Source: a virus (taxonomy: Duplodnaviria; Heunggongvirae; Uroviricota; Caudoviricetes). From it: 64,000 nucleotides of DNA. The notes below the pieces were generated by a model. The model saw only the letters and a program-made list of their open reading frames with translations. It had not been told where the DNA came from and searched no databases. The position numbers and the translations under genes were made by a program. Each line of letters begins with the position of its first letter. Position 1 is the stretch's first letter. Positions 14,001-48,926 of the stretch are shown one piece after another. The DNA lies in the IMG/VR virus record IMGVR_UViG_2519899835_000003; one strand, 5' to 3'.

Positions 14001-16400
14001 CCCCTGGCGACCAGCGGCATTTTCCGGTGCCTGCGCACGTCCTTTCTGGAAACTCTGGCCCTTCACCTCACCGGTTGTGGTAAAACGACCACCACGTCCG
14101 GCCTGATTTTCATCCGGCGTACGCGCCACTTCTCCTGGTAACGGATATCCCTGTCCGGGATGAATATCGCCGGGAGCGGGAAGGCGTGGACGCTCAGTTA
14201 ACTCCTGTGCTGTCGGACCGGCATCACCTTCAGCCATCTGGGAACGCACCAGTTCTTCCGCCGTCGGCGCGTTGCCACGGGCAAGACGGGCCTGCACTTC
14301 TGTATCATCCCCCGTAAAACCACGGAATCGCGGGTCACGCATGAACGCGGGCTGTTCCATCGGATCAGCATCAGTAATACGCTCTCCGTCAGCCAGAGTG
14401 TTAATGGTCTCCGTTGCCACATCTTCAGAGAACGCAGGATTATCCATTTCAACGGCATACTGATTCTCGCCTTTCTTCACTACGGACGGTTTCAGGCCGG
14501 TGGCGCTGGCATTGCGGAAAACGTCGCTCCCCAGAGCACTTTTTTCATCCGTGAAATAACGGTTGTCCGGACGCACCTTTTCAATGCGTTCTGCTGGTCT
14601 GGACGCACCACTCTCGTTAATTTCAATACGAACTTCATCCGGATCGCGGAACCGCACCGTCGGGTAAATACTCCCGTCGCCATCATCCGCATTTTCCGGC
14701 TGTGGCTGTGCCTCCGGTCTGGCCTCCCGCTGAGGGCGAAGCACATCACGTATTGCCTGTAACTGCTGCTCTTCAGTATCAGTACGCCCTTCCTTCTGGC
14801 TGAGTTTTCGGTATTCCTCAAGCAGTTCAGGGCGCGGCTTCGCCTTCAGCTCATCCATCACCGCCTGTCGCTTCGCCTGTTCATCCAGTTCATTCAACAG
14901 CTGGCTGGCGGCTTCCCGGCGATGAACGGCAGACGTGTCTCCCTCATGTGCCATATCCGCATCAGCATACTGTTCCAGAAGCTGCTCGCGATTCATCCCC
15001 TGCATAGATTCACGATGCTGTGCCACCGGATCAACCGGTTCGGGTTGCGGAGCCGATTCGTCCTGAGGAACGCTTTCAGCCTCACGCATGGCTGCTTCAT
15101 CTGCCGCCTGACGTTTTCCACGATATCCGGCAGCCGCACCGAATGGTGCCCCCATTGCAGCACCAAGGGCTGCACCTTCGATCGTTGCGTCAGCCACGCC
15201 CTCCCACGGTGACACATCCATTCCGGCGGTCTCACGCAATGCCGTGTTTTCCTGATAGCGTGAATAGCCACCCTGCGCCGCATTAATCGTCCCCTGTTCC
15301 GTGGCATTTCTGACAATGCCGCTTTTAACGGTCTTCGCCGTGCCCCGCATCGCCAGATTAAGCAACTGAGCATCGCCCAGTTTTGCCGCCATGGCATTCA
15401 CAGCCAGCAATTCAGGATCGGTTGCCAGTTGCGCACGCACCTCATCGGCAACACGCTCTTTTGCCAGGTCCATTTTCTGGCGGTCAGTAAGCTGCGCGTG
15501 CTGCGGATCTGCATCAATTGACAAAAAGGTCTGCTGAAATTTCGGTGACTTCGCCAGCTCAGAATAATCCGCGTTAAGAACAGCATCTGCCGCTGCCATT
15601 GCACTCCGCCCTTGCGCACTGACAGTGGAATGGGTGATCAGGCCTGCCTGGAAAAAATCCGGCATTTTTTTATCGACAGCTTCGGCTGCCAGTGCTGTGG
15701 CTCTTTCCGGCTGCATCCCTACCGCGATGTATTTTTTCTCCAGCCCGGCGGTCAGCACTTTTCGCAGAGTGACATCACCCAGCTTTTTAGTCACACCGCC
15801 TGCAACCATATCCGGTACAAGCGCACCAATCAGGTTAACCCCTTTCGCTACCCAGACCGCTGAATCATCATATCCTTCAGTCATCGGTGTATTCAGCGCC
15901 CGCTGCGCCCCCGGCGACATCTTGCCAGTCAGCCATTCATCCGAGGCTTTAGCGCCGCCACTGACTGCCTTGCCTGTGACCTTCAGACCTTTACCGACAG
16001 TATCAGTAACCGCATTTTTTCCATCAGGCAGAGTGTCGATGACCTCATCCGCCCCCTTGCTGCCACCGACAAAAATATCCTGAACAGTTGCTACTCCCGG
16101 CAGCCCCATACGGCTGAACTCATTTAAAATACGTGCCCCTGTTTTTACCGGGCTCTGAATCATCGCATCACCGAGTCCACGGGCCATTTCCCCTGTCCCC
16201 CGGACGGACTGGGCGACACCTTTCCCCATAGTTGGCAATACATCGCCCAGGCTGAACGACGTGCTGTTGTCCTTCCAGCGATTGGGATCGGAGAAAAACA
16301 CATCATAGCTGTCAGTCTCTCCCGGCTGCTGAATGTTCAGGCTGTTGCGGCTCTGGTTGCCAAATTGCGCTTCAGGGCGCTGTTCATCGGAATAAGCCAT
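8049..16400 (-). CDS. Giant 2783-aa virion-associated multidomain protein with two HExxH zincin-like motifs
   Basis: Single uninterrupted ORF; HEWFH at 12567-12581 and HEIIH at 11766-11780 confirmed in DNA; sits at the distal end of the virion gene block. Confidence 0.8.
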   Translation of the reverse strand: MAYSDEQRPEAQFGNQSRNSLNIQQPGETDSYDVFFSDPNRWKDNSTSFSLGDVLPTMGKGVAQSVRGTGEMARGLGDAMIQSPVKTGARILNEFSRMGLPGVATVQDIFVGGSKGADEVIDTLPDGKNAVTDTVGKGLKVTGKAVSGGAKASDEWLTGKMSPGAQRALNTPMTEGYDDSAVWVAKGVNLIGALVPDMVAGGVTKKLGDVTLRKVLTAGLEKKYIAVGMQPERATALAAEAVDKKMPDFFQAGLITHSTVSAQGRSAMAAADAVLNADYSELAKSPKFQQTFLSIDADPQHAQLTDRQKMDLAKERVADEVRAQLATDPELLAVNAMAAKLGDAQLLNLAMRGTAKTVKSGIVRNATEQGTINAAQGGYSRYQENTALRETAGMDVSPWEGVADATIEGAALGAAMGAPFGAAAGYRGKRQAADEAAMREAESVPQDESAPQPEPVDPVAQHRESMQGMNREQLLEQYADADMAHEGDTSAVHRREAASQLLNELDEQAKRQAVMDELKAKPRPELLEEYRKLSQKEGRTDTEEQQLQAIRDVLRPQREARPEAQPQPENADDGDGSIYPTVRFRDPDEVRIEINESGASRPAERIEKVRPDNRYFTDEKSALGSDVFRNASATGLKPSVVKKGENQYAVEMDNPAFSEDVATETINTLADGERITDADPMEQPAFMRDPRFRGFTGDDTEVQARLARGNAPTAEELVRSQMAEGDAGPTAQELTERPRLPAPGDIHPGQGYPLPGEVARTPDENQAGRGGRFTTTGEVKGQSFQKGRAQAPENAAGRQGEILEGETVRRGLPSPDEQNATAPVREGLPAPESQRGVDMPQPESLPRMVRDSLPELAQQAEARRQTGDNRQTITDVPDTEVPVPVDKPSTHQQVRGAKIEDFGEEIKGAAKHRYAQLAEAMGKTLEDGEYATQPLSKLFPKPDYARLEKEGVDSDTLAMMALYRSEIPTRTSRNMQKWISIVKSGREATAGMLEGKIPAAKLADMMDSKPGLRSMSDTWKLLRTLSALQIDKASGYRVRSGVYSFVGGKRYDPPQMMYSLRDSKGRDLFFSESRDELLKKAKAYFDEQGSRERETPATSADDRITFDVYRHKASGDIFIGYGKNRQKLKGGFESARDAHDYVRTHRDELVNQVKALREVSREEQRNATNRDRTGPERRKGDVSPEQFSDAFGFRGVQFGNYVESPRRQADLNRAYDSLHDLADVLNVPTKALSLNGRLGLAFGARGKGKAAAHYEPGEVAINLTKGNGPGALAHEWFHSLDNYFGRYDVSTDGKITSGGDYMTEAQRAVRVFKDGRYVDAEYPVRQEVYDAFKGVMKAINSSDMLRRSERLDGVRSKPYWSTDVEMAARAFERYVQDKARMAGVENDYLVNIRKADDHGQPDTYAYPTNAELDGGIREAFDHLFRTLKTRETDKGVAFYSRKGVTRTPEGNLISDVNRSAEAKGSPVPQVEAVARGVISGIKDSDLKVRVVKSQKEAEALAGESFDGYGKVHAFYRPDKREIVLVADNIPDGRTVREKLRHEIIHHAMEHVVTPAEYQTIIKTVLKTRDSDNATIREAWRKVDASYGKESPEVQAGEFLAHMAEKQPIKFVAAWERVVALVKGVLRRTGLLKPTELNDIRLVRETIRTLGQRVREGYTPREDGADASSQYSRSGKPDPFKVPEGEGERYRDDLARMMKSLRSTDLTVNIGRTPPVLRHLGAPDLPLVISRDTVRKATNGVKHVVPMDVIERLPELMHDPDAIYRSATERNAVVMLLDAVDKNGDPVVSAVHMKAVRSRLEINKVASVYGTENGKKLKSMEMTGLTLYRREKLSRDNLLHRGLQLPKGEHSYRGSVDKILYPEDIRKGPYYSRTSSLTPEETIASRFVRQMQDKFQVLKAVQENIRKTGGKIDDSNNAYMAEELFHGKAENDLNVMKERYVQPLAKLLADYKIAQADLDEYLYARHAPERNVHIAKINPKMPDGGSGMTNAEATEIMQRVRNSGKQAQYDRLAGIIDDMLARRREIIREAGLEESGVVDAWQKAYRYYVPLKGQDVDGVVSQPRTGKGFTIGGRESKQAMGRASRAQSPSTQAIQDLSESLIRNRKNEVGNAFLKLVQDNPDKDYWQVFTDDRPDTMRVIAERKDQETGETIREVVERPVPMAMMADRYFTTKKDGKTYYIKLHDPRLMRAMKNMGPETSNAVIRTLGKVNRFLATVNTSYNPEFLVSNFIRDVQTAVMNLKAEQGRSDGKLKELDNLSALAVVKDSRSAMSAVYASLRGKTLTGKGAQWQKVWKEFVEDGGKTGWFNMGDLEGQQKEMDRLVSLAKGGWKGQSIGAWHSFLNLVEDANGAVENALRLSAYKHARDAGLSRQQAASLAKNMTVNFNRRGEQGMLMNSLYMFANASIQGTANLVRTLGHLNGDGPLLERLRWKNLNVPQKIVLAAVGAGYLLGSLNRSVAGEDDDGVNWYDKVPSHVKERNLVIMKSMFGGKAGEYWSIPLPYGYNVFFLLGHTAEGVAAGDLTASRAAGNVVGGILGAFSPIGSETSETLSGALLKNAAPTILRPFANLSMNENFMGAQIYQENMPFGTPKPDSQLGRRSTPEAYKAFAFWLNAFSGGSQYRPGAVDITPESLKFWIDYISGGTGRFISKTTDAAVKSLNGIDIPEQQVPFLGKISGEVMPYADQQKMYDRMTEVAQYHAELKSLTGAERTAFIDENNGKLLMNGLMQDTRKRLKDLRKQRDAIYADSSLSLAQQAAMVKSVERDMKVAVDRFNREYNKKVGVD

Positions 16401-33074: not shown

Positions 33075-35219
33075 TCATAGCGGCAATTCATGCATCCGCT
33101 GTTGTAGTGTATGTAGCATCTGTTGCTGAAGAGCTTCCTGCTCCTGTTCCATATTCTGTATGCCGGTAATGATTTCTGCCGTATGCGCCTGGTTGAGCGC
33201 ATCCACATAACGCTGTCCCTGTGCCGCGGCGACATCCCGTTGTGCGCCAGCATTATCCCGTTGCGCAGCTGCCTGTGCCCTGGCAGCTTCTGCTTCCAGT
33301 TTAGCCACCCGGCCTGCCATTTCGCGCATCTGCAGTTCTTCCTGTTGTTGCTGCTGGGCCTGTTGCTGCTGAGCGGCCTGCTGCTCTTCCGGGGTCATCT
33401 CATCCGGTGATTTTGGTGTCCCCAGCGCCGCACGAATACGTTCGACAAATTCCTGTTTCTGCGGCACATCCAGAAGGTTAACCCACAGGTCGAGCACGAC
33501 GGCCTGCACCTGAGGTGGCAGCCCCTGAATAACCTCTGACATTCGCTGTGCAAGCTGTGCCTTAAACGCCGGTGTCTGCTGAACAGGAGCCAGCGCAATA
33601 TGTGTATTTAACCTTGAAATATCATTGGTCAGTTCACCATTATCACCTTCAGCATTGAGAACAATGGTCTGGCGACGCTGGCGATCATCACGATTAATCA
33701 CCACCGCATGATTACGCCGCTTTTTCAGGCCATCGAGAAGATAAGCGAGCAACAGCCTTCCCACCTGCTGGCAGGCAAACTGGTAGTTATCGTTGATTTC
33801 GGCAAGGGTTGTGGCTCCCTGCTCCACCAGGTTGCTGATCGCCACGCCGGACGATGCATTTGAATCCTGCCCGAGAAATGCGGAATAAACCCCCATCGTG
33901 TCCTGGATAAGTTTTTCCGACTCCTGCATGACCTGAAACTGCTGGCTGGCAACCTGAAAATCCTGTTCAACCCGGAAAACATCAGCAACGCTTTTCTGAT
34001 TTTTTCGGGCCGGATTCAGTTTAATAATGCCATCCGGACGCTCGATCTGCTCCATCAGCTCGTTGTCTGACAACTGGGTGGCATCCTCGTCCATAATCAC
34101 GCGTTTGGCCTGAAGCAACCACGTCAGTTTTATACGACGAAAATTCACCTCATCCTGTGCCGGAATGGCCCGGGAAATCAGCCCGTAAGGCTCCCCGGTT
34201 TTATCCTTCCGGTATCCCCAGAAGGGAACCAGCGGGAACATCCCCTGCGGCGCACTGCAGGGGCGATCCACAATAAAGTGCGGTCCCACAAACCAGGCTT
34301 CACGAATACGACTTACCCGCCCGACTCTCACCTGCACCCGCCCGGATGCCACAGCCACCGCATGCATCAGATTATTTTTATCAAAGGCCACCACCCGTCC
34401 ATTACTGAGTTCAATCACCGGAAGACGCTCGAATGTACGGTAATAAACCACCTGAAGCAGCACACGACGGCGTTCACGCTGAAGCCATTCGTTCTCCTTA
34501 CGATCCCATGACTGATACTCTTCCCATGCACTCATCAACGGACTGGGCTGGCCTTCAGTAACCGTGGTATCGACAAAACCACGCCAGTCATCAATGGCAT
34601 AATCGATAACCTGAGCCATTCCCGGGAATGTGGCTTTTGCCTCATCGGTATCCATCCAGCGGCGGCGCATCAGCCAGCGGCAGTCACTTAAATCAGCTTC
34701 CCGGCTGAGCCAGTCCCAGAACACTTCATTCCGGCTGACAGTAGACACCTTAAACTCAGGCCCGAACGGATCGCTGTTCCGTCTGACCTCCACCCAGCTG
34801 AGCCCCGCCTTGATTTGTTCCGCATAGGCATCAGAGCGGGCTTTATTCATATTGCCAAGGCGGCATGCATCGGCAAATTCAGCATTAATAGCTTCAGCCA
34901 GTTTTTCAGTTTCATCATCTGGCTCGTCTGACATCACCACCAGATCAGTCCGTGTTTTGGCCTCCATTCCCAGAACACCATCAACGGTAGGCGCGATGAG
35001 GTTATGGATAGTCATCGGCTGACCGCGATCTTTCAGTACCTGAAGAACTTCTGGTGGCAACTGGTCACCATCGTAATACGCACAGGCCTTGTTTGCGGCA
35101 TCGCGCCATTTAGGCTGACTGTCAATATCAGAACAAAGCGCCTGTAACTGGCGCTGAGAAAAACGCGGCGTGGCTCCGTTGTCGTTTTTCGTCGCCATGG
35201 TATTAGTTTCATTTTTCAT
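33075..35219 (-). CDS. Portal protein
   Basis: 714-aa ORF directly after the large terminase gene; Q-rich helical C-terminus. Confidence 0.8.
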   Translation of the reverse strand: MKNETNTMATKNDNGATPRFSQRQLQALCSDIDSQPKWRDAANKACAYYDGDQLPPEVLQVLKDRGQPMTIHNLIAPTVDGVLGMEAKTRTDLVVMSDEPDDETEKLAEAINAEFADACRLGNMNKARSDAYAEQIKAGLSWVEVRRNSDPFGPEFKVSTVSRNEVFWDWLSREADLSDCRWLMRRRWMDTDEAKATFPGMAQVIDYAIDDWRGFVDTTVTEGQPSPLMSAWEEYQSWDRKENEWLQRERRRVLLQVVYYRTFERLPVIELSNGRVVAFDKNNLMHAVAVASGRVQVRVGRVSRIREAWFVGPHFIVDRPCSAPQGMFPLVPFWGYRKDKTGEPYGLISRAIPAQDEVNFRRIKLTWLLQAKRVIMDEDATQLSDNELMEQIERPDGIIKLNPARKNQKSVADVFRVEQDFQVASQQFQVMQESEKLIQDTMGVYSAFLGQDSNASSGVAISNLVEQGATTLAEINDNYQFACQQVGRLLLAYLLDGLKKRRNHAVVINRDDRQRRQTIVLNAEGDNGELTNDISRLNTHIALAPVQQTPAFKAQLAQRMSEVIQGLPPQVQAVVLDLWVNLLDVPQKQEFVERIRAALGTPKSPDEMTPEEQQAAQQQQAQQQQQEELQMREMAGRVAKLEAEAARAQAAAQRDNAGAQRDVAAAQGQRYVDALNQAHTAEIITGIQNMEQEQEALQQQMLHTLQQRMHELPL

Positions 35220-36925
35220 CAGTGAGCCATCCAGTGTGTGGTTCTGCGTTTATCCGTTTTCTGTCTTACCCTCACCGGCATTCTGGCGCGCATCTCCTGG
35301 GCAATCATGTAGCTCATAAGCTGATCATCAAAACAGCCTTCCTGTGCATTCATGGAGCCTTTCGCGTCATAAACGTAGGTGTTCATTTCTGATAATGTGC
35401 CCGTCCAGCGGATCCCCGACAGGCCGTTATTCAGCAGCGTTTTCATTCCCTCAGTCAGGACCGGTTTACTCTGGCGGGTTGTCAGCCAGCCAAGACGGGG
35501 CGTATCGTCGTCATATGCCTGGTCAAGGTGCTGTTCGTTGTAGATATAACGCGTCGGATAGAGTTCCCGGAGTTTCAGGATAACGGCATGTCCGTGATTG
35601 TTACGCTCCGGCCCCACAAACGCGTTGTTGTACATACGGCAGACCTGCGCAATGAGATGAGCGAAAAGCTCCGCATCGAGATGACCAAACCAGTGGGCTA
35701 CCTGCTCACCATTACTACATCTGATGATATCCAGCGATGAGCGGTCTCCGTGCTCCAGCCCCTCAGCGGTATCCGCTCCGCATACATACTCTTCATCCGG
35801 ATCCGGTAGCTCCCAGACCAGCAGATAATTCATCAGCGTCCGGTGCTGTTCGGCTTTATTCCCGTCACGCAGAGACTGCGCTTTGGTCTTCGTTCCTGTA
35901 ACCGGTTCAATGTCATAAACAATCAGCGGTGGCGAACAGAATGACTCTGCCTGCAGCGTGCTTTCCGCACTGAACACCCGTCGTCCGGACGTCAGAAACG
36001 CCTCCTGTGGTGTTGAGGGAAACTCCTGCTTCATTTCCTCACGCTGTTCAGTTTCCTTGCAGATGTACCAGTGTTTCTGCTCATCGGTAAGCGTGATGTT
36101 CATTGCTTTTTCAACCGCAGAAAAATACGCTGTTTTTTCCCGTGACAGCTTAAGTCCGCTTTCCGGCACTCTGGCGCTGTATTTGAGATCCTGCCACCAG
36201 GCGTAAAAATGGAATTTATAATCCTGTGGCGTCAGCGCCAGCCCTGATGCAGTGATTTCCTGTGCCCGGTTACTCATCTCGTAAAAATCGCCACCCACAC
36301 CTTCAGCAGTGGATTCATCAAAAATAATGCACTCATCAGAGACGGCATTAAGTGTACCGGTTCGCAGCTCTTTCGCCTTAGCCGGATATTTTGCGCAAAT
36401 TTTGCCGTGCTCTGAGATATGCAGGCGCTGCACCGTACCTGAACGGAATGAGGTTGCCACCTGGATACTCGAGCCGTGCCCAAACAGGATATAGCCACCG
36501 CTGGCTCCGCTACGACGTTCAACGATGGTGAATGAGGCTCTCAGCCAGTCAGGAAGATGATCAAACGGTACAGCAATTTTGGTGCGGAAAATTTCACTGG
36601 CAGCCTGTTTATCCTGAGCGACAATCCCGCATTTGAGATGCGGTATGAATAATGCCTGGTCGAGAAGATAAATATCAATGGCCGTGGAAAACCCCAGCTG
36701 GCGTGCTTTCAGGATAATATTTTTATTGTGCATGCTCCGGAACAACTGGCGCTGCGCCGGTCGCATTCTGAAGGTGACCAGCTCACCTTTTTCGTTCTGT
36801 ATCTTGTAGAGATGATTGAGCCGCCACCAGGGATTGCTCAGTTTAGTCATGATGAACAGACGTTGTTCGGCCTCTGTCATTTCTGACGGTTCATCACATC
36901 GCGGTTCATTCTTCCGGAATGTCAT
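35219..36925 (-). CDS. Terminase large subunit
   Basis: 568-aa ORF following the small terminase subunit gene; overall impression of a terminase ATPase-nuclease. Confidence 0.85.
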   Translation of the reverse strand: MTFRKNEPRCDEPSEMTEAEQRLFIMTKLSNPWWRLNHLYKIQNEKGELVTFRMRPAQRQLFRSMHNKNIILKARQLGFSTAIDIYLLDQALFIPHLKCGIVAQDKQAASEIFRTKIAVPFDHLPDWLRASFTIVERRSGASGGYILFGHGSSIQVATSFRSGTVQRLHISEHGKICAKYPAKAKELRTGTLNAVSDECIIFDESTAEGVGGDFYEMSNRAQEITASGLALTPQDYKFHFYAWWQDLKYSARVPESGLKLSREKTAYFSAVEKAMNITLTDEQKHWYICKETEQREEMKQEFPSTPQEAFLTSGRRVFSAESTLQAESFCSPPLIVYDIEPVTGTKTKAQSLRDGNKAEQHRTLMNYLLVWELPDPDEEYVCGADTAEGLEHGDRSSLDIIRCSNGEQVAHWFGHLDAELFAHLIAQVCRMYNNAFVGPERNNHGHAVILKLRELYPTRYIYNEQHLDQAYDDDTPRLGWLTTRQSKPVLTEGMKTLLNNGLSGIRWTGTLSEMNTYVYDAKGSMNAQEGCFDDQLMSYMIAQEMRARMPVRVRQKTDKRRTTHWMAH

Positions 36926-37721
36926 CCAGTCTCCCCGAATTACTCATTTCATGCAGCGATGACACGATGTCACTGACAGGCGTAACAACGCCCCGACGCT
37001 GGCTGGTCAGAATATCGGTTTCCGCTCTGAGTTTATCTCTGGCAGCGTTGGTTCTTTCCCGGTCAGCACGAAGTTTTGGTGCTGTTTCAGCCAGAACGTC
37101 CAGCGTCAGCAATGAGCGTTCAATTGACTCGATACGGGCAATATTCCGGTCAAGAGCCTGTTCAGCTTTGAGTATTTTGTCGTACAGAGCAACGCGGGTT
37201 TCCACGTCAGCCGCCTCTTTCAGGTCGGCGAACATTTTTTTCAGTGTTCCTGTTACTGAAAGTGCGCGGGCCCGGGTAAACACCAGTTCATCGGCAAGTT
37301 CCATTCCGACTGCATCATCTATGAGGTTATCTGCCTCGAGATACTTCGCGTATCCACGGTGTCTGACGGCGTGGGTGTTACGCTGAGAAAAAGCATTTGA
37401 AGGTGGCAAAAGTCTGGAACCACGAGTCCGTTTCGTTTCTGCCAAATTTGCGCATTTTTCATCACAACCATCATCGCCTGAAGGCTCGTCATGACTGGAG
37501 TTGCCGTCAGATTTCTGCGCACTTTTTTGATCATCAATTTGCGCATTTTTCTGCGCACTTTTCTCTGTATTTCTGGGGGAGTGTTTGCGCAGTTTAATGT
37601 ACCGCCGAGCCGTGTCATAACTGATATTGTTCTGACGGCACCAGTCCTGAAGCTTTATGCCGGTTTTGACATGTTCGCGTCGAAATGCCTGCTCCAGCTT
37701 TTTCCAGTCCAGCTTTGCCAT
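36906..37721 (-). CDS. Terminase small subunit
   Basis: 271 aa, N-terminal HTH-like region (NNISYDTARRYIKL); first gene of the late structural block. Confidence 0.7.
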   Translation of the reverse strand: MAKLDWKKLEQAFRREHVKTGIKLQDWCRQNNISYDTARRYIKLRKHSPRNTEKSAQKNAQIDDQKSAQKSDGNSSHDEPSGDDGCDEKCANLAETKRTRGSRLLPPSNAFSQRNTHAVRHRGYAKYLEADNLIDDAVGMELADELVFTRARALSVTGTLKKMFADLKEAADVETRVALYDKILKAEQALDRNIARIESIERSLLTLDVLAETAPKLRADRERTNAARDKLRAETDILTSQRRGVVTPVSDIVSSLHEMSNSGRLDDIPEE

Positions 37722-38323
37722 GTCACCTTCTGACGTTCTCTGTTAAAAACTGATGCACAATGACTGCTGTAAATTTTCAGATTTCACACAGCAGAGCCAT
37801 GTCTGATTAATGTTTAACCTTATTTAGGTTATATCCGCTTCATTCCACTACAGCACCAGATAGGCTGCCTCGCGGATAAATGCCAAAGTCTCCTGATATA
37901 GAAACCCGTCGCCACATCGAGCGCTGATCAACATTTGTATATTCACTGCGACAGAAAGAATTTATTTTATTGAATAGTTAGAAATACAGAATTGCATGCT
38001 TTATAAGCATTGACGCACACTTCATTTTTAGCAATATATTCTGTTCTCATAGACGATCAGCCCTGCATGCACTGCCGGACACCGTCGGCAATTTTACAGA
38101 CCTAAGAGGCAATACCAAAAAGCTAACGCGCTTTATCAAGACTTGAGCAACCAACCAATAAAAAAAGCACCAGTACCGCTACCAATGCCCATTTCGTCGT
38201 TGTTCACAGCATTCTGTGTACCCACTGTATTTCGCGTCATATCACCACGTCAGACAATCCTTAAGGATTACATAAGATTTACGCATAATAATGCCCATTT
38301 TCAACACAGACAAGGGAATTTAT

Positions 38324-38905
38324 ATGTTAAATCAAACGCTAACAAAATCTCTTCTTATATTTTTACTTGTCATAATCGTTTCTGTATCCATCATATACAT
38401 TGTAAGAACTCCAGTCAGACTTGATGTGAACGATGTCACTGAGATTAACCAGAAACATCCCATTATTTTTCTCATCCGGCATGGGGAAAGATGCGATCGC
38501 TCCCAAAGAATATGTCTTTCAGCACATGAGGGAATCACAGTAAACGGAGCTAACAAAGCTCAACAATATGGAGATAAATTCAGAAGAATGTTTCCATACT
38601 ACAGTCTCTATTCTACAGACACACTCCGAACAATGCAGACAGCCACTTTTTTTTCGGGAGGTAAGACAGCAACTATTCCGGACATATCGACATGTGATGA
38701 TAACGCAGTAAATAATATCCTTAAAATATCAAAATCAGATCATGTTACTGTGATTTTCACACATAATCACTGTCTGTCCAGAATTGCAAAAAAAATGAAT
38801 GGATGGAGATTTAAACCTGATTATATGGGCACACTGGTTCTGCATCGGGAAAATCACAATCTGATTCTCGACGGACATTTAAAACCAAACGAGCTTACCC
38901 AGTGA
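38324..38905 (+). CDS. Histidine phosphatase similar to Ais/PmrG (LPS core heptose(II)-phosphate phosphatase)
   Basis: Signal-anchor then LIRHGERCDRSQRICLS...VIFTHNHCL...FKPDY, matching recalled Ais; AT-rich; opposite strand to late genes. Confidence 0.8.
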   Translation: MLNQTLTKSLLIFLLVIIVSVSIIYIVRTPVRLDVNDVTEINQKHPIIFLIRHGERCDRSQRICLSAHEGITVNGANKAQQYGDKFRRMFPYYSLYSTDTLRTMQTATFFSGGKTATIPDISTCDDNAVNNILKISKSDHVTVIFTHNHCLSRIAKKMNGWRFKPDYMGTLVLHRENHNLILDGHLKPNELTQ

Positions 38906-38985
38906 TCCATTTGTTGATAATGCACTGGCATTGATTCAGGTTATATCTCTCCTCATAAAAAAGGCCAGCGATTGAGCTGGCTCTG

Positions 38986-39444
38986 TTAATCGAGGCATTG
39001 CATCCTGATGTACTCCTGCAGGTAGTTAACCTGCGCGGTTATCTTGTCGATTCCACTTCGGAGACGGTAATAATTGAGTTCAGCATCTGCTGTAAGTCCT
39101 GAGCTTTCTCCATCGCCCATGCCGCTGGCTCCGGTCGTTGACTTTGCACAGGTGGCGGCGACTTGCAGGCGCTTACGCCCAGCAGAAACATCAGCACGGA
39201 GACTTTCAATAGTCGCGTTAGCATCAGCAAGCTCCCTGGTGTATCTGGCATCGAGTGCAGCAACATCACGCTGGCGCTGCTGTATGTCAGCAATGGTGGC
39301 GTTCGCCTGGCTGAGTTTTGTCTTCGCATCATCTCGCTGCTCTTTGTAGGTGATGGCGTTATCACGGTAATGGTCTGTTGCCAGCCACAGCGATCCACAA
39401 CCAAGCAGCAGGACAATAAGCACGCCATACAGCACACGATTCAT
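38986..39444 (-). CDS. Rz: Spanin inner membrane subunit Rz
   Basis: MNRVLYGVL...NHYRDNAITYK...RQRDVAALDA matches lambda Rz. Confidence 0.9.
   Translation of the reverse strand: MNRVLYGVLIVLLLGCGSLWLATDHYRDNAITYKEQRDDAKTKLSQANATIADIQQRQRDVAALDARYTRELADANATIESLRADVSAGRKRLQVAATCAKSTTGASGMGDGESSGLTADAELNYYRLRSGIDKITAQVNYLQEYIRMQCLD
39039..39224 (-). CDS. Rz1: Spanin outer membrane lipoprotein Rz1, embedded in Rz in the +1 frame
   Basis: 61-aa ORF MLTRLLKVSVLMFLLGVSACKSPPPV... with lipobox and proline-rich region. Confidence 0.75.
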   Translation of the reverse strand: MLTRLLKVSVLMFLLGVSACKSPPPVQSQRPEPAAWAMEKAQDLQQMLNSIITVSEVESTR

Positions 39445-39779: not shown

Positions 39780-40313
39780 TTATCTGTCGATACTCCAGCA
39801 CGCCAGCGCGCTCTCCTGGTCACGCCGCGATACCTGCCCGTAACAGTTATTTGAGCGGTTCCGACAGTCCCTGCCGCCGTCATATATCCATCGGCGGATT
39901 TCAGCACATGCACCTTTCCGGTCTCCTGCGTTCAGTTTCCGGTAAAACGTTGAGGTGAAGCATTTCGAAGGCCCGATGTTGTACGGGCAGAATGACGCGA
40001 TGCCCGCTTTCTGCGGTTCGGTCAGTGGCACTCTGATGTTTTTCTCCACCCATGCCAGCGCCTTATCACGCTCAATGGCGTTAACCCGGTCGCATTTTTC
40101 CTTCGACAACTTCATGCCCGGAACGACAGGTTTGCCATCCACCAGGATGGCACCGCGGCAGATAGTCCAGATACCCGCACCATCACGGTATGCCGTGGTG
40201 TGGTTACCTTCTTTTTCGTCAAGAAACTGGTCGAGGATTTCAGGCGCAGAAGCGCCCGCAGCAATCAGCGCCAGAACGACCGCTGATAAACCATAGCGGA
40301 ATTTCCTGCTCAT
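39780..40313 (-). CDS. R: SAR endolysin (T4-lysozyme-like, phage 21 R type)
   Basis: N-terminal hydrophobic SAR segment LSAVVLALIAAGASA then EGNHTTAYRDGAGIWT catalytic region. Confidence 0.9.
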   Translation of the reverse strand: MSRKFRYGLSAVVLALIAAGASAPEILDQFLDEKEGNHTTAYRDGAGIWTICRGAILVDGKPVVPGMKLSKEKCDRVNAIERDKALAWVEKNIRVPLTEPQKAGIASFCPYNIGPSKCFTSTFYRKLNAGDRKGACAEIRRWIYDGGRDCRNRSNNCYGQVSRRDQESALACWSIDR

Positions 40314-41202: not shown

Positions 41203-43113
41203 TTATGCGGCTGCTCCAGCTTTGTTTGCTTTAACTTCCACCGTATCAATAAGTACAGGGTAGGTTTCTGCACTACCTGTAATATCCGTAATGACAAACC
41301 TGTTGAGTCCATTAGCAGTATTGGCCCATTTCACCAGGTCAAACGCCTGTCCATCCACACCATCGAGCACCGGAGTAACATTAATGCTGTTACTGCCCTT
41401 AAATTTAAATGCAAGCGTATGCCAGTCATGGTCGAATGCGCCAAACGTGCCAAGTTCTTTTTGTTGATTAACTGTATGATGGTATGCAACATTAATACTG
41501 GCTTTATCTGTCTGGACAAAGAAAGAACTCAGATGGCCTTCACCACCCTCACCCGGCCATTCCGCTATTCGCCAGTACAAACCAAAGGCATACTTGTTTC
41601 TGGTTGTCTCAAGATTGACGTTTTCGGGGATTTTAAACCGGACAGCAATTTCCCCGCCTTTTTCCAGTAAAAGTTTTGCCTTGTCTGCAGCAATATCACA
41701 GTACATTGACCAGGATTTCGCGCTGTTATTTTTCTCAATTCGCAGAGCTTTATTGCCGCTGTCATCAACCAGTGTGCGTCTGCCATACATACCGTCCCAG
41801 CCATAAGGTTTCAGCTGATTGTCTGTAGCTTTTTTGGCATCGTAAAAAATTACAGACTCTGAGGTGGTAACCGGCCTGTCTGGAACAACCACCCCGGCAG
41901 TACCATTAACAAACGCAGAAGACTTACCCGCGCAGCTCAGAATCGCCGTTGCCAGACGGTCGGAAATAATCCCACGGCGAGCCCATGAACTGAAATGGCT
42001 CGCCCTGTCCTGTGACGTCCAGGTGGCTGAGCTGTCACGCCATTTCGAACCGTAATATCCGATACCCGGAATGTCCGGGTCTTCTTCCGGTTTGTTCGTC
42101 GGCACATTCACCCCGTTCTCATCCGTCATGAACGGTACGAAATGGATATTCTTTTCCGTTTTATTTTTATAGCTGCCGTACACCGTCTGGTACGTGGATT
42201 CGTTCTTCTGCTTCCAGAAATACGTCGTGTCCCCGCATATCCAGGGAACACCGCCAGCAGAGCCACCGACGCACTGGCCTGCCATATCCGCCAGGTCTGC
42301 ACGGAATTTATCAACCAGCGCACCAAACTGTGCGGCATGATTTGCCGGCGTACCGCCAAAATCAAATTCCCCCTGCATCCACACCACGGCAAACAGCACA
42401 TTTTTCGGGTTCTTCTCCAGTGCCGCTTTTGTTCGACCGATAAGGTCCTTATACAGCGGCTTGTCCACACCCCAGCGGGTTGAATTCTCCGAGGCACCAC
42501 TCGCGTCACTGTATGTGCCATCAGCTCCGGTGGTGAACGCTGAACCACCACGACAGCACGGAACCAGCAGAATGCCCGCATTCGCCGGTATAAACGGCAG
42601 CAGTTTTTTGGCGATATGCAGCCCCTGCCCCACGGTTCCGTACTGCCCCTTTGACAGGTCCGCTTTCGGATGGTTAAGACGGCTCATGTCCTGCACATCA
42701 TGCAGACAATGGTCCGCCGGAATGATGTCGTTATATTTGCATGCTGCACCGCCCGGTGTCACCGTACTGCGACGCGCTAACTGTTTAATACGTGGATCAG
42801 GGCTGTCGAATGTATCCGGTAATGGCAGTCCCTCACCGTATGACATACCATTGGACTGACCAGCAAGCGCGATCACATAGTAATATTCTGGCGCAACAGA
42901 AGGCGCTGAGGTCGTCGGACGGTTGCCTGGCTCCTCTGGTGATGAGATGCTCCCCTCACTCACAACTGGCTGGATGAACTCCGCACCATAACCAGCTGTC
43001 GAAATCAGCGCACTACCATAAGGCTGCCACCCTTCCTTCAGTTTTTGAGTTATTCGTTTCGCAAGGTCTGACGGCGACGCCGCCCTGACAACATCATAGT
43101 GTTTAAATGCCAT
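41203..43113 (-). CDS. Prophage NanS-like sialate O-acetylesterase (SGNH/DUF303)
   Basis: 636 aa with ALAGQSNGMSYGEG esterase motif; positioned between Q and the holin gene. Confidence 0.75.
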   Translation of the reverse strand: MAFKHYDVVRAASPSDLAKRITQKLKEGWQPYGSALISTAGYGAEFIQPVVSEGSISSPEEPGNRPTTSAPSVAPEYYYVIALAGQSNGMSYGEGLPLPDTFDSPDPRIKQLARRSTVTPGGAACKYNDIIPADHCLHDVQDMSRLNHPKADLSKGQYGTVGQGLHIAKKLLPFIPANAGILLVPCCRGGSAFTTGADGTYSDASGASENSTRWGVDKPLYKDLIGRTKAALEKNPKNVLFAVVWMQGEFDFGGTPANHAAQFGALVDKFRADLADMAGQCVGGSAGGVPWICGDTTYFWKQKNESTYQTVYGSYKNKTEKNIHFVPFMTDENGVNVPTNKPEEDPDIPGIGYYGSKWRDSSATWTSQDRASHFSSWARRGIISDRLATAILSCAGKSSAFVNGTAGVVVPDRPVTTSESVIFYDAKKATDNQLKPYGWDGMYGRRTLVDDSGNKALRIEKNNSAKSWSMYCDIAADKAKLLLEKGGEIAVRFKIPENVNLETTRNKYAFGLYWRIAEWPGEGGEGHLSSFFVQTDKASINVAYHHTVNQQKELGTFGAFDHDWHTLAFKFKGSNSINVTPVLDGVDGQAFDLVKWANTANGLNRFVITDITGSAETYPVLIDTVEVKANKAGAAA

Positions 43114-43597
43114 GAATCCTCCCGGCCGGGATAATATTGTGAGTAAAATAAGGAGCGGGCTGAAGTCCGGAAGTTACAGGACAATGGCAGAAGGGAGACT
43201 ACAGCCCGCAATTCGAAAAAGGTCGCGCAGTTGCGCAGAGTGATTACTATGGGGTATTATTCGCCAGCTGAAATATTACTTCACGTTTCATTGTTCATTC
43301 CTTGCCGCCCGCGTCTCCCAGCGCGGGCTTTTTTGTCCATAAGAAAGCCCCTCCGGAGAGGGGCTGGAGAGTGGCGCTATGTGCCATTGCATGGTGCCGG
43401 GTGCCTCCCGGTGAGTTCAGCCCGGTGCCACTAAACCCGCGTCATTCTCGTTTTGATAATCAGAGATTATACCGTCACCAGTCGCCCCTCCGCTCAGGGG
43501 GATTCACCATGCAGTTTTTTCTAACAAATTCTCATCCGGGCAGACAACATTCAACTGACTTAATTGTGAGGTATGTAACATTCCCGTTGAACGGATA

Positions 43598-43628
43598 CAA
43601 AAAAAGCCAGCCACCAGGGGAGGCTGGC
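43598..43628 (-). terminator. Rho-independent terminator in the Q-to-esterase leader
   Basis: gccagcc...ggctggc hairpin followed by T-run on the minus strand. Confidence 0.45.
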
Positions 43629-43807
43629 AAACTCGTAGAGCAAAATGCTGTTACGCAAACTTCGTTACAGGGTTATCCTGCAATACTTAAAATATACAAT
43701 ATTTAGAAAACTAATAGTGCCATATGAGATTTTTAAGATTTTGTTATTAATTGCGGTCGTACCTTCCTTTCTGTGTACTTTCCGTATAGCTCACAGGATT
43801 CTGGGTA

Positions 43808-43833
43808 CAAAAAAACCCGCGCATCGGCGGGTT
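43808..43833 (-). terminator. Rho-independent terminator about 50 nt downstream of Q
   Basis: acccgc-cgatgc-gcgggt hairpin followed by T7 on the minus strand. Confidence 0.5.
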
Positions 43834-43878
43834 CGGCTGCGTGGCAATGTAACCACTCTTATCATGATATGCAGATTT

Positions 43879-44313
43879 TTACGATCGTAAACTATTTTTT
43901 CGCTGATAAAATACAGAGGTTCTCCCTCCCGGCAATTCACGCTCAACATACCGATCCATCTCAAGCCTCACTCCCAGCATCATCAGCATGCCTTCAACAA
44001 TCCCCTCCGCTTTGTGAAGGCGTTTACCTATACAGGTGTCAGAGCACCCATGTTTCCGTGCCAGCGCCATGAACGTCTCCCCCAACACGTAGTAATCAAC
44101 CAGCAAGTCATGCAGATCGCGATTGTTCCGGTAAAGGCGGGCTATGCACCCGCATATCACCATCGCATCATCGTCACAGCACTGTGGACGTGATTTTACT
44201 TTTTCGGGGATCAGTCCCTTAAATCCGGCAGCAATGGGCGACCATGTAACATCCTCATAGTTATTTACCGCCCATGCCCCCCAGCGCTCAAGAACCTGCC
44301 GGATATCACGCAT
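43879..44313 (-). CDS. Q: Late antiterminator Q
   Basis: [25 protein letters not shown]...[17 protein letters not shown] matches the Q of Stx phages as I recall it. Confidence 0.8.
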
Positions 44314-44503
44314 CAGTATCTTTACCCCATCCGCGATGAACCATAAGGACGCCATTGACGACGGCGTGCTTTTTCGCATCTTTATCATCAATGTATTTTC
44401 TGACTGTAGCACGATTGCAGTTCAGTATTCTGGCGACTTCTGTCTGATTTCCCCTGGTGCAGATCAGTAATTCAGGTATCGTTTGAATTTTAGCATTCAT
44501 CAA
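44306..44503 (-). CDS. ninH: NinH-like DNA-binding protein
   Basis: 65 aa; [19 protein letters not shown]...[17 protein letters not shown]. Confidence 0.7.
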
Positions 44504-46629: not shown

Positions 46630-46890
46630 AATGACGCCCTCGAGTGGTTTCTTAATAACTCACCACCGACGACGCCAATCGTCTGGTGGTGAACTGTGCA
46701 GGGTTGGCGTAACCGGGAAACCGACCGGCGCGGATCTCTCCGCCCCCACACAGCCCACCATAATTCAGATGTGCGCGTGCATACGACAATAAAAAACACG
46801 CTCGCGGCGTGTATCTGTCGCGGTCTCTATCCAGGACGCCAATCCCGACGCCAGATTTTGCTGGCGCGTGAGGAATATAGCCCCGAATAA
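46630..46890 (-). repeat. Copy 1 of a ~260-bp structured leader upstream of an ORF6N gene
   Basis: Aligns with 48214-48475; shared hairpins with compensatory base changes; hairpin plus T-run at 46789-46812. Confidence 0.6.
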
Positions 46891-47082
46891 ATCATCACGT
46901 CAATCACCTTGTTTTCCTCGCACGATGTCTTAGCCACCGGATATCCCACAGGTGAGCCGTGTAATTGAAGGCTTTAACGTCAGATTCTTTTGGGATTGGC
47001 CTGGGTTTATTTCTGGAACGTTTCGTTGGAAGGTAATTGCAGTTTTCACAGACTATATCGGTAATGCTTCGTCGCTGTCGTC

Positions 47083-47493
47083 TCATTCATACCTCCTGTC
47101 GGTAAATCTGACACCCTGCTCCACAGCCCAGGAAGTTGTGTACTCAATCAGGCTTGCCATACGCTTCACGCTCATCTGCGCACTGCTTTCGCGGATATTG
47201 ACGTATTCACCTTCAAGACCAGGCAAAACATCAGCTTCCTGTTTTGTCGCCACGGCATGACCGCTGATTAACAAAACTTTCCACTGTTCTGGTTTTAGCC
47301 ATCTGCCGCACCACTGAACCTGTCGGGAGATATCAGCGACCATCGCGTGAAATTTGGCATTTTGATCGAGATTCCGCTTGTAATCGGTGATGCGGATCGT
47401 AACGGGTTTGTCTTTATCGAGAGTTGTTGCAAGGATGGCGTTAATGGCGAATTGTTGCTGCTGCTTACTTCGGAGGAAGATAGTCTGGTTCAT
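47083..47493 (-). CDS. ninB: Recombination protein NinB
   Basis: 136 aa; [24 protein letters not shown] resembles lambda NinB. Confidence 0.85.
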
Positions 47494-47547
47494 TATTCCC
47501 TCTCACTGGATTTTCCCAACAAAAAAGGAGCCGAAGCTCCTTTAGTT

Positions 47548-48213
47548 TCAGAATTCAAATTGTCTTGCCCGCAGGCTTTTCAGCATTGGCATGGCCCGCT
47601 GGATAACGGAACTTGACATGTCGAGACGTGTTACCTCCCTCAGTAGCGCGTCTCTGTTCTTCGTCACCATGTAGATGGTCTCAAACGCAATGTCATACAG
47701 CTTGTTCGTGTATGAGGAGTTCAGCTCTTTCATAATGGGATACAGGTGTTTGCTGATGTCCTGGGCTTTTTCCATCCAGAGCTGCATGTAGCAAAGGAGG
47801 ATGATTTCTTCGGCTGTGAATTGTGGCTGAATCTGCGGCTGCTGTTCGGTTGGTGCTGTTTTTCCCTGGCTGAAATAGCAGTCTTCCAGTTTTTCGAATA
47901 CCTCCCACGCCCGATCGGTTTCGAGCATTTTTGCGTGACGGGCTGCGCCGCGTTCTGTCCAGAGGATGAGGGAGCGGGCATTTTTACCAACTAACCCGAT
48001 TGTTTCGGGTCTGTTCTTAAACTCGCGTAATTCGTTTTTTTCAATTTTAAAGTAATGCTTTCCGGGCATGAATCGCGTCGTGTTGTTCAGAAAGTTATCA
48101 GAAATGTTTTTGATTTTTGTTCCGTAAAGGTGAGCCAACAGTTCAGTAGTAATTACGGGGATCTGGTTATAGGTAACAGGGGAAAGGTTTTCGACAGAAA
48201 TTTGAACAGCCAT
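47548..48213 (-). CDS. ORF6N domain antirepressor paralog with the shared C-terminal domain
   Basis: N-terminus like 45946-46629; C-terminus like the 2929-3558 protein. Confidence 0.75.
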   Translation of the reverse strand: MAVQISVENLSPVTYNQIPVITTELLAHLYGTKIKNISDNFLNNTTRFMPGKHYFKIEKNELREFKNRPETIGLVGKNARSLILWTERGAARHAKMLETDRAWEVFEKLEDCYFSQGKTAPTEQQPQIQPQFTAEEIILLCYMQLWMEKAQDISKHLYPIMKELNSSYTNKLYDIAFETIYMVTKNRDALLREVTRLDMSSSVIQRAMPMLKSLRARQFEF

Positions 48214-48475
48214 AATGACCTCGCGTTTCGATAATTTTTACCTCGCCACCGTCAGGTGCTAATCATCGTGGTGGCGAACTGTGCGGGGTTAGCACTACCG
48301 GTCGAAACATCCGGCGAGCCTTTCGGCTCCCCCACACAGCCCGCCATAAATCGCGAATGTGACTGTGCTTAGCGCATAAAAAAACCGCCAGCGCGGTTAT
48401 GCACCGTTTCGATATCCGGGGTGCTAATCCCGACGCCAGGTTTTGCTGGCGCGTGAGGAATATAGCCCCGAACAC
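48214..48475 (-). repeat. Copy 2 of the structured leader upstream of an ORF6N gene
   Basis: Homologous to 46630-46890; hairpin plus T-run at 48378-48398. Confidence 0.6.
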
Positions 48476-48555
48476 GCGACGTTGTCAAACTGATGGCATT
48501 GCAGATCCCTACGCAATGTAACACTATGTGTTATACATTAATAACGGAACAAAAA

Positions 48556-48926
48556 ATGCGCATTTTTAAAAACGCCTGGTTTGAGCGATTTGCACGCAAA
48601 ACAAAATATCCGACCAATCACTGCGCGAAATTGTTAAACAGGCTGATAACGGGCTTATCTCAGCAAACCTGGGTAACGGCGTTATCAAGCAACGTCTGCC
48701 ACGAGTCGGTGGCGGCAAATCTGGCGGTTATCGCACAATCATTTTCTATCGCGTCGGCACAAGGGCCTTTTTCGTATATGCATACGCAAAAAATGAACGT
48801 GAAAATATAACCGCTACTGCGGAAAGTGCATTTCGGAAGGCGGCTCCTCACGTACTCAATCTAACAGATGAACAACTGGCACAACTGATTCTACAGGGTC
48901 AGTTTACGGAGGTACCCAATGAGTAA
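48556..48926 (+). pseudogene. HigB/Gp49-like RelE-superfamily toxin gene disrupted by a frameshift
   Basis: N-terminus MRIFKNAWFERFARK in one frame; toxin-like C-terminus GGGKSGGYRTIIFYRVGTRAFFVYAYAKNERENIT in another frame with no start codon; shift in an A-tract near 48600. Confidence 0.55.

Follow-up and report, generated by a model that had tools for sequence, protein, structure and literature searches.

What is a gene related to a host lipopolysaccharide (LPS) phosphatase doing between the lysis and packaging genes of a lambdoid prophage, and what controls it? This question is raised by IMGVR_UViG_2519899835_000003, a stretch of viral DNA of 64,000 nucleotides (nt) that was analyzed at its full length (the window). 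In it, an intact open reading frame (ORF) at 38324-38905 on the plus strand (ATG at 38324, stop codon included) encodes a histidine phosphatase of the Ais/PmrG family with 193 amino acids (aa). The gene is probably expressed in the lysogen and inducible through the host system BasS/BasR, with a product that would face the periplasm and remove phosphate from the LPS core. BasS/BasR, known as PmrB/PmrA in Salmonella, responds to Fe3+, Al3+, and mild acid.

In the proposed mechanism, the gene would be a moron, a self-contained passenger in the slot between Rz and the terminase genes of an stx-less 933W/Oslovirus-like prophage. An N-terminal hydrophobic segment would hold the protein in, or export it across, the inner membrane, with the catalytic domain facing the periplasm. 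Because the gene would be transcribed from its own promoter against the phage late operon, the protein would be made in the lysogen, and antisense late transcription would oppose its expression during lytic growth. A PmrA/BasR box set off from the -10 hexamer by 10 nt appears to replace the -35 element, and because it takes this place as in the host arnB promoter, BasS/BasR would be expected to switch on the gene together with the chromosomal LPS-remodeling genes. By homology, the enzyme would strip a phosphate, most likely that of heptose II, from the inner core of the LPS, and this removal would lower the negative charge and metal binding of the surface.

Family, active site, and probable substrate

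An identity as an Ais/PmrG-like histidine phosphatase had been proposed in an earlier reading made without database searches (the sequence-only reading), and the profile, alignment, and structure comparisons all agreed with it. In the Pfam scan, His_Phos_1 (PF00300) was the sole domain, scoring 28.9 bits against a gathering threshold of 21.7 with an aligned part, the N-terminal third, that covered residues 48-114 only; no DNA-binding domain was found. The NCBIfam model NF011945 (PRK15416) of the LPS core heptose(II)-phosphate phosphatase subfamily, to which Ais/PmrG also belongs, matched residues 10-187 with 202 bits against a cut-off of 142. BLASTP against K-12 Ais gave 43% identity over 158 aa (E = 7e-44), an alignment of the whole mature domain, and the two proteins share the motifs RHxERCDRS, THNHC, and KPDY as well as the invariant cysteines. 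The motifs quoted in the earlier reading were located at residues 52-60 (RHGERCDRS, nt 38477-38503), 145-151 (FTHNHCL), and 163-167 (FKPDY). In an alignment of 43 sequences, R52, H53, G54, E55, R56, C57, D58, R59, S60, C64, H147, and C150 were invariant, while R102 and H149 were conserved in at least 90% of the homologues. Since the catalytic residues R52, H53, R56, and H147 are invariant, the active site is intact, and the invariant cysteines would fit export to the periplasm.

A sequence search of the PDB with the protein returned no match at E ≤ 1, and the fold was therefore assigned using AlphaFold 2 (AF2) and Foldseek. The model had a predicted local distance difference test (pLDDT) value of 91.3 and a predicted template modeling (pTM) score of 0.85. 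The top 50 Foldseek matches in the PDB were all histidine phosphatases (best E about 2e-7, probability 1.0), including phosphoserine phosphatase 5zr2, RosC 9emu, SixA 1ujb, and the C-terminal domain of MutT1. No PHROGs family matched the protein.

The protein had also been called signal-anchored. The hydrophobic N-terminus was confirmed as a 19-residue stretch at residues 9-27 (mean Kyte-Doolittle value 3.06), which is followed directly by R-T-P and forms one single helix with the preceding residues in the AF2 model (residues 2-27). No small-x-small signal-peptidase site follows this stretch, whereas K-12 Ais has one between THA and AW. Both proteins would be exported, the prophage protein with an N-terminus that looks uncleaved in place of a cleavable signal peptide; a signal anchor is likely, and this part of the earlier claim is plausible.

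The identification itself is not new, since RefSeq already names the product in O104:H4 genomes 'LPS core heptose(II)-phosphate phosphatase'; the annotation of the chromosomal E. coli ais gene still says 'putative'. The genomic position separates the two genes: the prophage gene lies between Rz and terS and not beside the arn (pmrHFIJKLM) operon, whereas K-12 ais adjoins arnB.

According to a passage in PMC8129183 that cites Nishino 2006, PmrG of Salmonella removes phosphate from heptose II. The exact substrate of the prophage protein may differ, because the protein missed the cut-off of the PmrG equivalog model (NF052369, 113.4 bits against 170) and has only about 43% identity to Ais; the failed model counts against the proposed substrate. 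Polymyxin B resistance did not change when ais/pmrG was deleted in PmrA-constitutive E. coli (PMC8129183), and an effect of the prophage copy on polymyxin resistance, which the sequence-only reading had suggested along with possible effects on serum resistance and phage adsorption, is for this reason unsupported by the chromosomal gene.

It is somewhat unlikely that the enzyme acts on another envelope target, such as the heptose I phosphate or pyrophosphorylethanolamine (PPEtN), the lipid A 1-diphosphate, or a phosphorylated surface polysaccharide. Such a target would be compatible with the proposed mechanism, and the main role would then be a receptor change (superinfection exclusion or protection of progeny) and not tolerance to metals or peptides. 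Besides the PmrG model, it is favored by the separation of the prophage clade from Ais in the neighbor-joining tree and by the settings of the relatives, in which LPS serves as a receptor or a partner in adhesion (the IncI gene traG beside the shufflon, copies after fimbrial operons). The host also has a chromosomal ais gene already, so a plain duplicate would be of little apparent use. On the other side, the PADLOC defence models gave 0 families at E ≤ 0.01 for the protein, and the catalytic and most near-invariant positions are common to Ais/PmrG.

The promoter and its predicted control by BasR

A direct repeat resembling the PmrA/BasR box begins 64 nt upstream of the ATG and is followed by a -10-like hexamer (Table 1). 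Experimentally verified PmrA boxes have the form CTTAAG-N5-xTTAAT, and the pbgP box of K. pneumoniae is CTTAAT-N5-CCTAAG (PMC3973317); the latter and the window box deviate at the identical place, position 2 of half-site 2. The K-12 arnB (pmrH/pbgP) promoter reads CTTAAG-gttaa-GTTAAT, 10 nt, TAAAAT, with a spacing equal to that of the window promoter. Both promoters have a direct-repeat box, exactly 10 nt, and a -10 hexamer with no -35 element, whereas half-site 2 is CATAAG in the prophage box and GTTAAT in arnB, and BasR is predicted to bind the former.

The full architecture (box, 10 nt, and -10 hexamer) occurred once in the window with both strands considered, compared with 0.064 occurrences expected, and its expectation is 2e-4 per 200 nt of island-like sequence. 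As deposited phages gave only one carrier, GER2, the comparative context came from prophage contigs in IMG/VR and assembly collections; L numbers denote the loci. The architecture was found at -64 to -70 in the diverged prophage alleles, where the box was perfect in L033, L043, and L044, had one mismatch in L030-L032, L038-L040, and L131, and had two in L010-L013. In an alignment of seven lineages, the box block was the best-conserved part of the upstream region, and the DNA 5' of the block was unrelated between lineages. The fimbrial and plasmid paralogues had no PmrA box. We infer that host BasR (PmrA) activates the cassette, with binding and induction both predicted from the sequence.

Several observations weigh against this control. 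The 17-nt box pattern alone was not significant in the window, with 5 matches against 3.4 expected, and it became informative only once the spacing, the -10 hexamer, and the conservation across lineages were added. The 10-nt spacing rule was itself partly drawn from those alignments before the comparison with arnB. The first half-site has decayed in L008 and L009, the former being the closest other allele (83% identical), and because of the decay in L008 the box is apparently not indispensable. The proximal architecture was missing from the present-day chromosomal ais genes examined; PmrA/BasR control is found on both sides, predicted in the case of the prophage gene, and the proximal box in place of a -35 element belongs to the prophage gene. 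A generic sigma-70 scan called no convincing promoter upstream of the gene, as expected because the scan requires a -35 match, which is absent from activator-dependent promoters; the scan offers no support either.

Inheritance of the promoter from a chromosomal ais gene was rejected. The orthologues of Escherichia, Citrobacter, and Salmonella showed only an inverse reading of the arnB box, located 210-330 nt upstream and with no -10 hexamer at 10 nt.

Another explanation retains the enzyme and the moron as described and drops the BasR control. The repeat would be an inherited or chance AT-rich feature, and expression would be low and constitutive or under another regulator, for example through H-NS silencing. 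We regard this as unlikely. The lack of enrichment of the box alone, the intact gene downstream of the missing half-site 1 in L008, and the loss of the box in L041, where the upstream region was replaced by an insertion sequence (IS) element, all agree with it. It is opposed by the constant positions of the whole block (box, 10-nt spacer, -10 hexamer) in seven lineages despite a synonymous divergence (dS) of about 1 (near saturation) and unrelated DNA further upstream, and by an architecture that equals that of arnB and has so low an expectation per window.

A broader proposal, which we consider evenly balanced, is that the whole moron clade extends the host PmrA/BasR regulon for LPS remodeling. 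A cassette of box, -10 hexamer, and anchored phosphatase would have been repeatedly acquired at the bor slot by no fewer than five unrelated lambdoid lysis/packaging backbones, its BasR wiring would have been kept despite saturated synonymous sites, and its phosphatase would differ in specificity from chromosomal Ais. If this is true, lysogens would remodel their LPS-core phosphates in response to Fe3+, Al3+, or acid signals with a phage enzyme unlike Ais in specificity. If the wiring is real, it would clearly exemplify how a temperate phage connects one of its passenger genes to a two-component regulon of the host that governs surface charge. Possible consequences of carrying the gene include changes in survival where the gut is acidic or rich in iron, in how the cell binds metals and cationic peptides, and in whether conjugative pili or LPS-dependent phages recognize it. 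The gene is carried by the outbreak lineage E. coli O104:H4; related alleles are found in some Shiga toxin-producing (STEC) and enterotoxigenic (ETEC) E. coli strains, and the biology of the Ais family is almost unstudied. Literature searches for prophage-borne ais/pmrG genes or for their control by BasR found nothing relevant. The prophage clade, its repeated capture in one slot across backbones, and the conserved PmrA-box promoter are undescribed in the literature searched, while a moron in the bor slot is a classical concept.

The Rz-terminase slot and its occupants

The coordinates, strands, and GC profile agree with the earlier description of a plus-strand, AT-rich gene in the Rz-terminase interval, antisense to the late operon. 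Across 38200-38950 the GC content falls to 0.37-0.39, compared with 0.50-0.56 in the flanking late genes. In pairwise blastn against the related Oslovirus phages TL-2011c, PhiR12_3, and P13374, homology breaks off at about 37875-37896 and returns at 38993. PhiR12_3 has nothing in the slot, and P13374 carries a Rha-like gene there; TL-2011c has an antisense Bor-like gene in exactly this position, which bears out the statement that lambda uses it for bor. On the lambda map, bor is placed between Rz and the packaging genes in antisense orientation, and its product, a small lipoprotein of the outer membrane, has been linked to serum resistance. The prophage gene is like lambda bor and the TL-2011c gene in its slot, its orientation, and the logic of a lysogen-expressed, envelope-modifying moron, whereas it has no sequence or fold relationship to Bor, and the likeness is positional only.

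Further marks of a lambdoid moron were found together here: a location between lysis and packaging genes, antisense orientation, a predicted promoter and terminator of its own, deviant GC content, and absence from close relatives. Lysogen-expressed LPS remodeling is also known from the prophage morons gtrABC (glucosylation) and oac (acetylation), which serve mainly serotype conversion or superinfection exclusion. Those genes act on the O-antigen, whereas the ais-like gene would by homology act on the core and is apparently linked to a stress regulon of the host.

Within the island, probably only about 38250-38985 is specific to the ais-like cassette, because positions 37888-38248 match, at about 79% identity, the interval between the M15 endolysin and terminase genes of other lambdoid prophages. 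On the minus strand at 37880-38260 (ORFs 38136-38240 and 38123-38185) is what remains of a lipoprotein gene of 60 aa (lipobox LLVGC), its frame broken by a 1-nt insertion. The intact gene follows the M15 endolysin in SE11-type lambdoid prophages and may encode a spanin-like lysis lipoprotein; a further-deleted copy adjoins the ais-like gene in L030-L032. A minus-strand terminator-like call at 38190-38165 falls inside this remnant. On the terminase side of the island, a stretch of 150-175 nt upstream of the small terminase gene (window 37722-37896; homologues in L003-L007) is conserved despite differing neighbor genes, for example ...CTATTCAATAAAATAAATTCTTTCTGTCGC...GGCGACGGG...ATATCAGGAGAC, and may be a packaging (pac/cos) or regulatory site.

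Alleles with 60-85% protein identity were found with the last lysis gene on one side and the small terminase gene on the other, antisense to both, in at least five lambdoid backbones. These were a Nu1/GpA terminase with Rz (L008, L030, L031), Terminase_2/Terminase_6N with ParB/TAGT and a GH108 endolysin (L010, L012, L013), Nu1/GpA with GH108 (L011, L033, L043-L045), DUF1441/GpA with an M15 endolysin (L038-L040), and the Oslovirus terS/terL with Rz of the window. Two more alleles, in Salmonella (L041) and on a plasmid (L131), are flanked by IS elements. The ratio of nonsynonymous to synonymous divergence (dN/dS) between pairs of prophage alleles was 0.17-0.26 at dS values of 0.3-1.2, which indicates purifying selection on what would be a working protein.

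In a neighbor-joining tree, the prophage alleles grouped apart from Ais and TraG, and the AfrS-like and fimbrial paralogues fell outside the prophage clade. These distant relatives, 43-57% identical, are located after fimbrial/EAL or AraC genes, beside espP on virulence plasmids, and as traG on IncI plasmids, which shows that the Ais-family phosphatases are mostly a mobile-element family of prophages, IncI plasmids, fimbrial islands, and virulence plasmids. TraG of IncI1/IncK plasmids is about 45% identical over the catalytic domain and is likewise an Ais-family protein on a mobile element, with about 1,400 plasmid records. Unlike the prophage gene, traG lies outside any prophage, inside the traE-J transfer operon with rci and the shufflon as neighbors, and it lacks a PmrA box. 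The shufflon determines the recipient LPS that is bound by the thin mating pilus. An example is the IncI-gamma/K1 plasmid pN441 (L130), where the Ais-family histidine phosphatase traG occupies 2450-2962. In Tn-seq of pESBL, traG, listed under the identical product name, was not found to be required for transfer (PMC4288162).

Other distant Ais paralogues are carried by espP-type plasmids (L014-L017, 3464-5582) and by the loci L048 (3014-4585) and L046 (1281-3941). They recur as a pair with an EAL-domain gene upstream of them, the pair lying beside a SPATE autotransporter or following chaperone-usher fimbrial operons; others come after two AraC-type regulators. The AfrS-like paralogues, including the espP plasmid copy, belong to the same family and are likewise part of the mobile or accessory DNA in pathogenic E. 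coli, whereas they are found downstream of fimbrial, EAL, or AraC genes, with no PmrA box detected. That the prophage protein is itself an AfrS-like regulator of adhesin expression and not an LPS enzyme is very improbable. The source of one homologue, P0066 (60% identical, with 45% of the query covered), labels it 'transcriptional activator AfrS', and paralogues follow AraC-type regulators or fimbrial operons. The AfrS name is a source label only, and a literature search for AfrS yielded nothing beyond a gene list. The prophage protein lacks a DNA-binding domain; its fold is that of histidine phosphatases, its active site is intact, and it has an export signal and the invariant cysteines.

Host prophage, distribution, and surroundings

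Chromosomes of E. coli O104:H4, among them C227-11, 2009EL-2050, and 2009EL-2071, matched a 1.3-kb region around the gene at 100% identity, and the DNA was 99-100% identical in 43 complete genomes. A relative detectable at the DNA level was present in about 83 of 5,426 complete E. coli genomes. The carrier is an stx-less 933W/Oslovirus-like lambdoid prophage of E. coli O104:H4. In the annotated C227-11 locus, Q (43879-44412) is followed by a SASA-family esterase (41203-43113) with no stx between them (43113-43879), and the Stx2 phage of O104:H4 was ruled out on this ground; the Stx2 phage P13374 also differs in the Rha-like gene that fills the corresponding slot. The window prophage is a second prophage, an stx-less relative of Stx phages that lies beside the Stx2 phage in one O104:H4 genome. 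No tRNA genes were found anywhere in the window using ARAGORN.

Among 50,697 deposited phage genomes, the only carrier was the Stx1 Oslovirus GER2 from O117:H7, a close relative that carries stx1. Its ORF is complete, with tblastn spanning residues 1-193 in one piece at 99.5% identity. The GER2 record (L001, MG710528) splits the intact gene into a 273-nt 'phosphatase' fragment (6934-7206) and a spurious antisense ORF of 39 aa (6664-6783), which looks like an annotation error and not a true truncation. It is hardly credible that the gene is a decaying, non-functional remnant of illegitimate recombination, as the neighboring frameshifted lipoprotein gene (38136-38240, minus strand) and the 273-nt fragment of the GER2 annotation might suggest, when the ORF is intact in both the window and GER2, dN/dS is about 0.2, the catalytic residues are invariant, and the DNA is nearly identical in the 43 complete genomes.

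The coordinates of the gene and its surroundings are collected in Table 1. The 193-aa start is the choice of PGAP and of nearly all homologues. An alternative in-frame ATG at 38291, giving 204 aa, lacks a Shine-Dalgarno sequence, lies across part of the predicted -10 hexamer, and would fall upstream of the transcript. Antisense ORFs within the gene (38332-38556, 38363-38506, and 38735-38878, all on the minus strand) were judged spurious; one of them is annotated as a hypothetical protein in GER2, yet it lies wholly inside the conserved coding sequence. The hairpin downstream of the gene has a T-run on the minus strand, after Rz, and is preceded by an A-run on the plus strand. It is common to L008, L030, and L031, with a different hairpin at the same point in other lineages, and its folding energy is unremarkable (z = -1.6).

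Table 1. Features of the ais-like gene and its surroundings in the window
Feature	Position	Strand	Details
Large terminase gene	35219-36925	-	Flanking late gene
Small terminase gene	36906-37721	-	phrog_370, 1.2e-117
Variable AT-rich island between small terminase gene and Rz	37897-38992		Pairwise blastn and GC profile
PmrA/BasR-box-like direct repeat CTTAAG-gatta-CATAAG	38260-38276	+	Half-site 1 perfect; half-site 2 with one mismatch, at its position 2; overlaps -35
-10-like hexamer AATAAT	38287-38292	+	Exactly 10 nt after the box
Shine-Dalgarno-like AAGGGA	38312-38317	+	6 nt before the ATG, read off the sequence
Coding sequence, Ais/PmrG-family histidine phosphatase	38324-38905	+	Putative N-terminal hydrophobic anchor, residues 9-27; RHG, residues 52-54; second catalytic His, residue 147
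GC-rich hairpin GCCAGC-gattga-GCTGGC, candidate bidirectional terminator	38964-38981		Between the two convergent stop codons
Rz	38986-39444	-	Pfam Phage_lysis, 7.8e-37
Endolysin gene	39780-40313	-	Flanking late gene
Q	43879-44412	-	Neighboring gene

Other passenger genes are found in the window at about 20400-21500 and 46800-48700, with positions taken from the C227-11 annotation in L002 and shifted by 17,699. They include genes for Hok/Gef and HokD toxins, a frameshifted Ail/Lom gene, cor, and genes for a RelE/ParE toxin with a helix-turn-helix (HTH) partner and a Doc-family toxin. Beyond the tail genes, a very large ORF of 2,783 aa occupies 8049-16400 on the minus strand.

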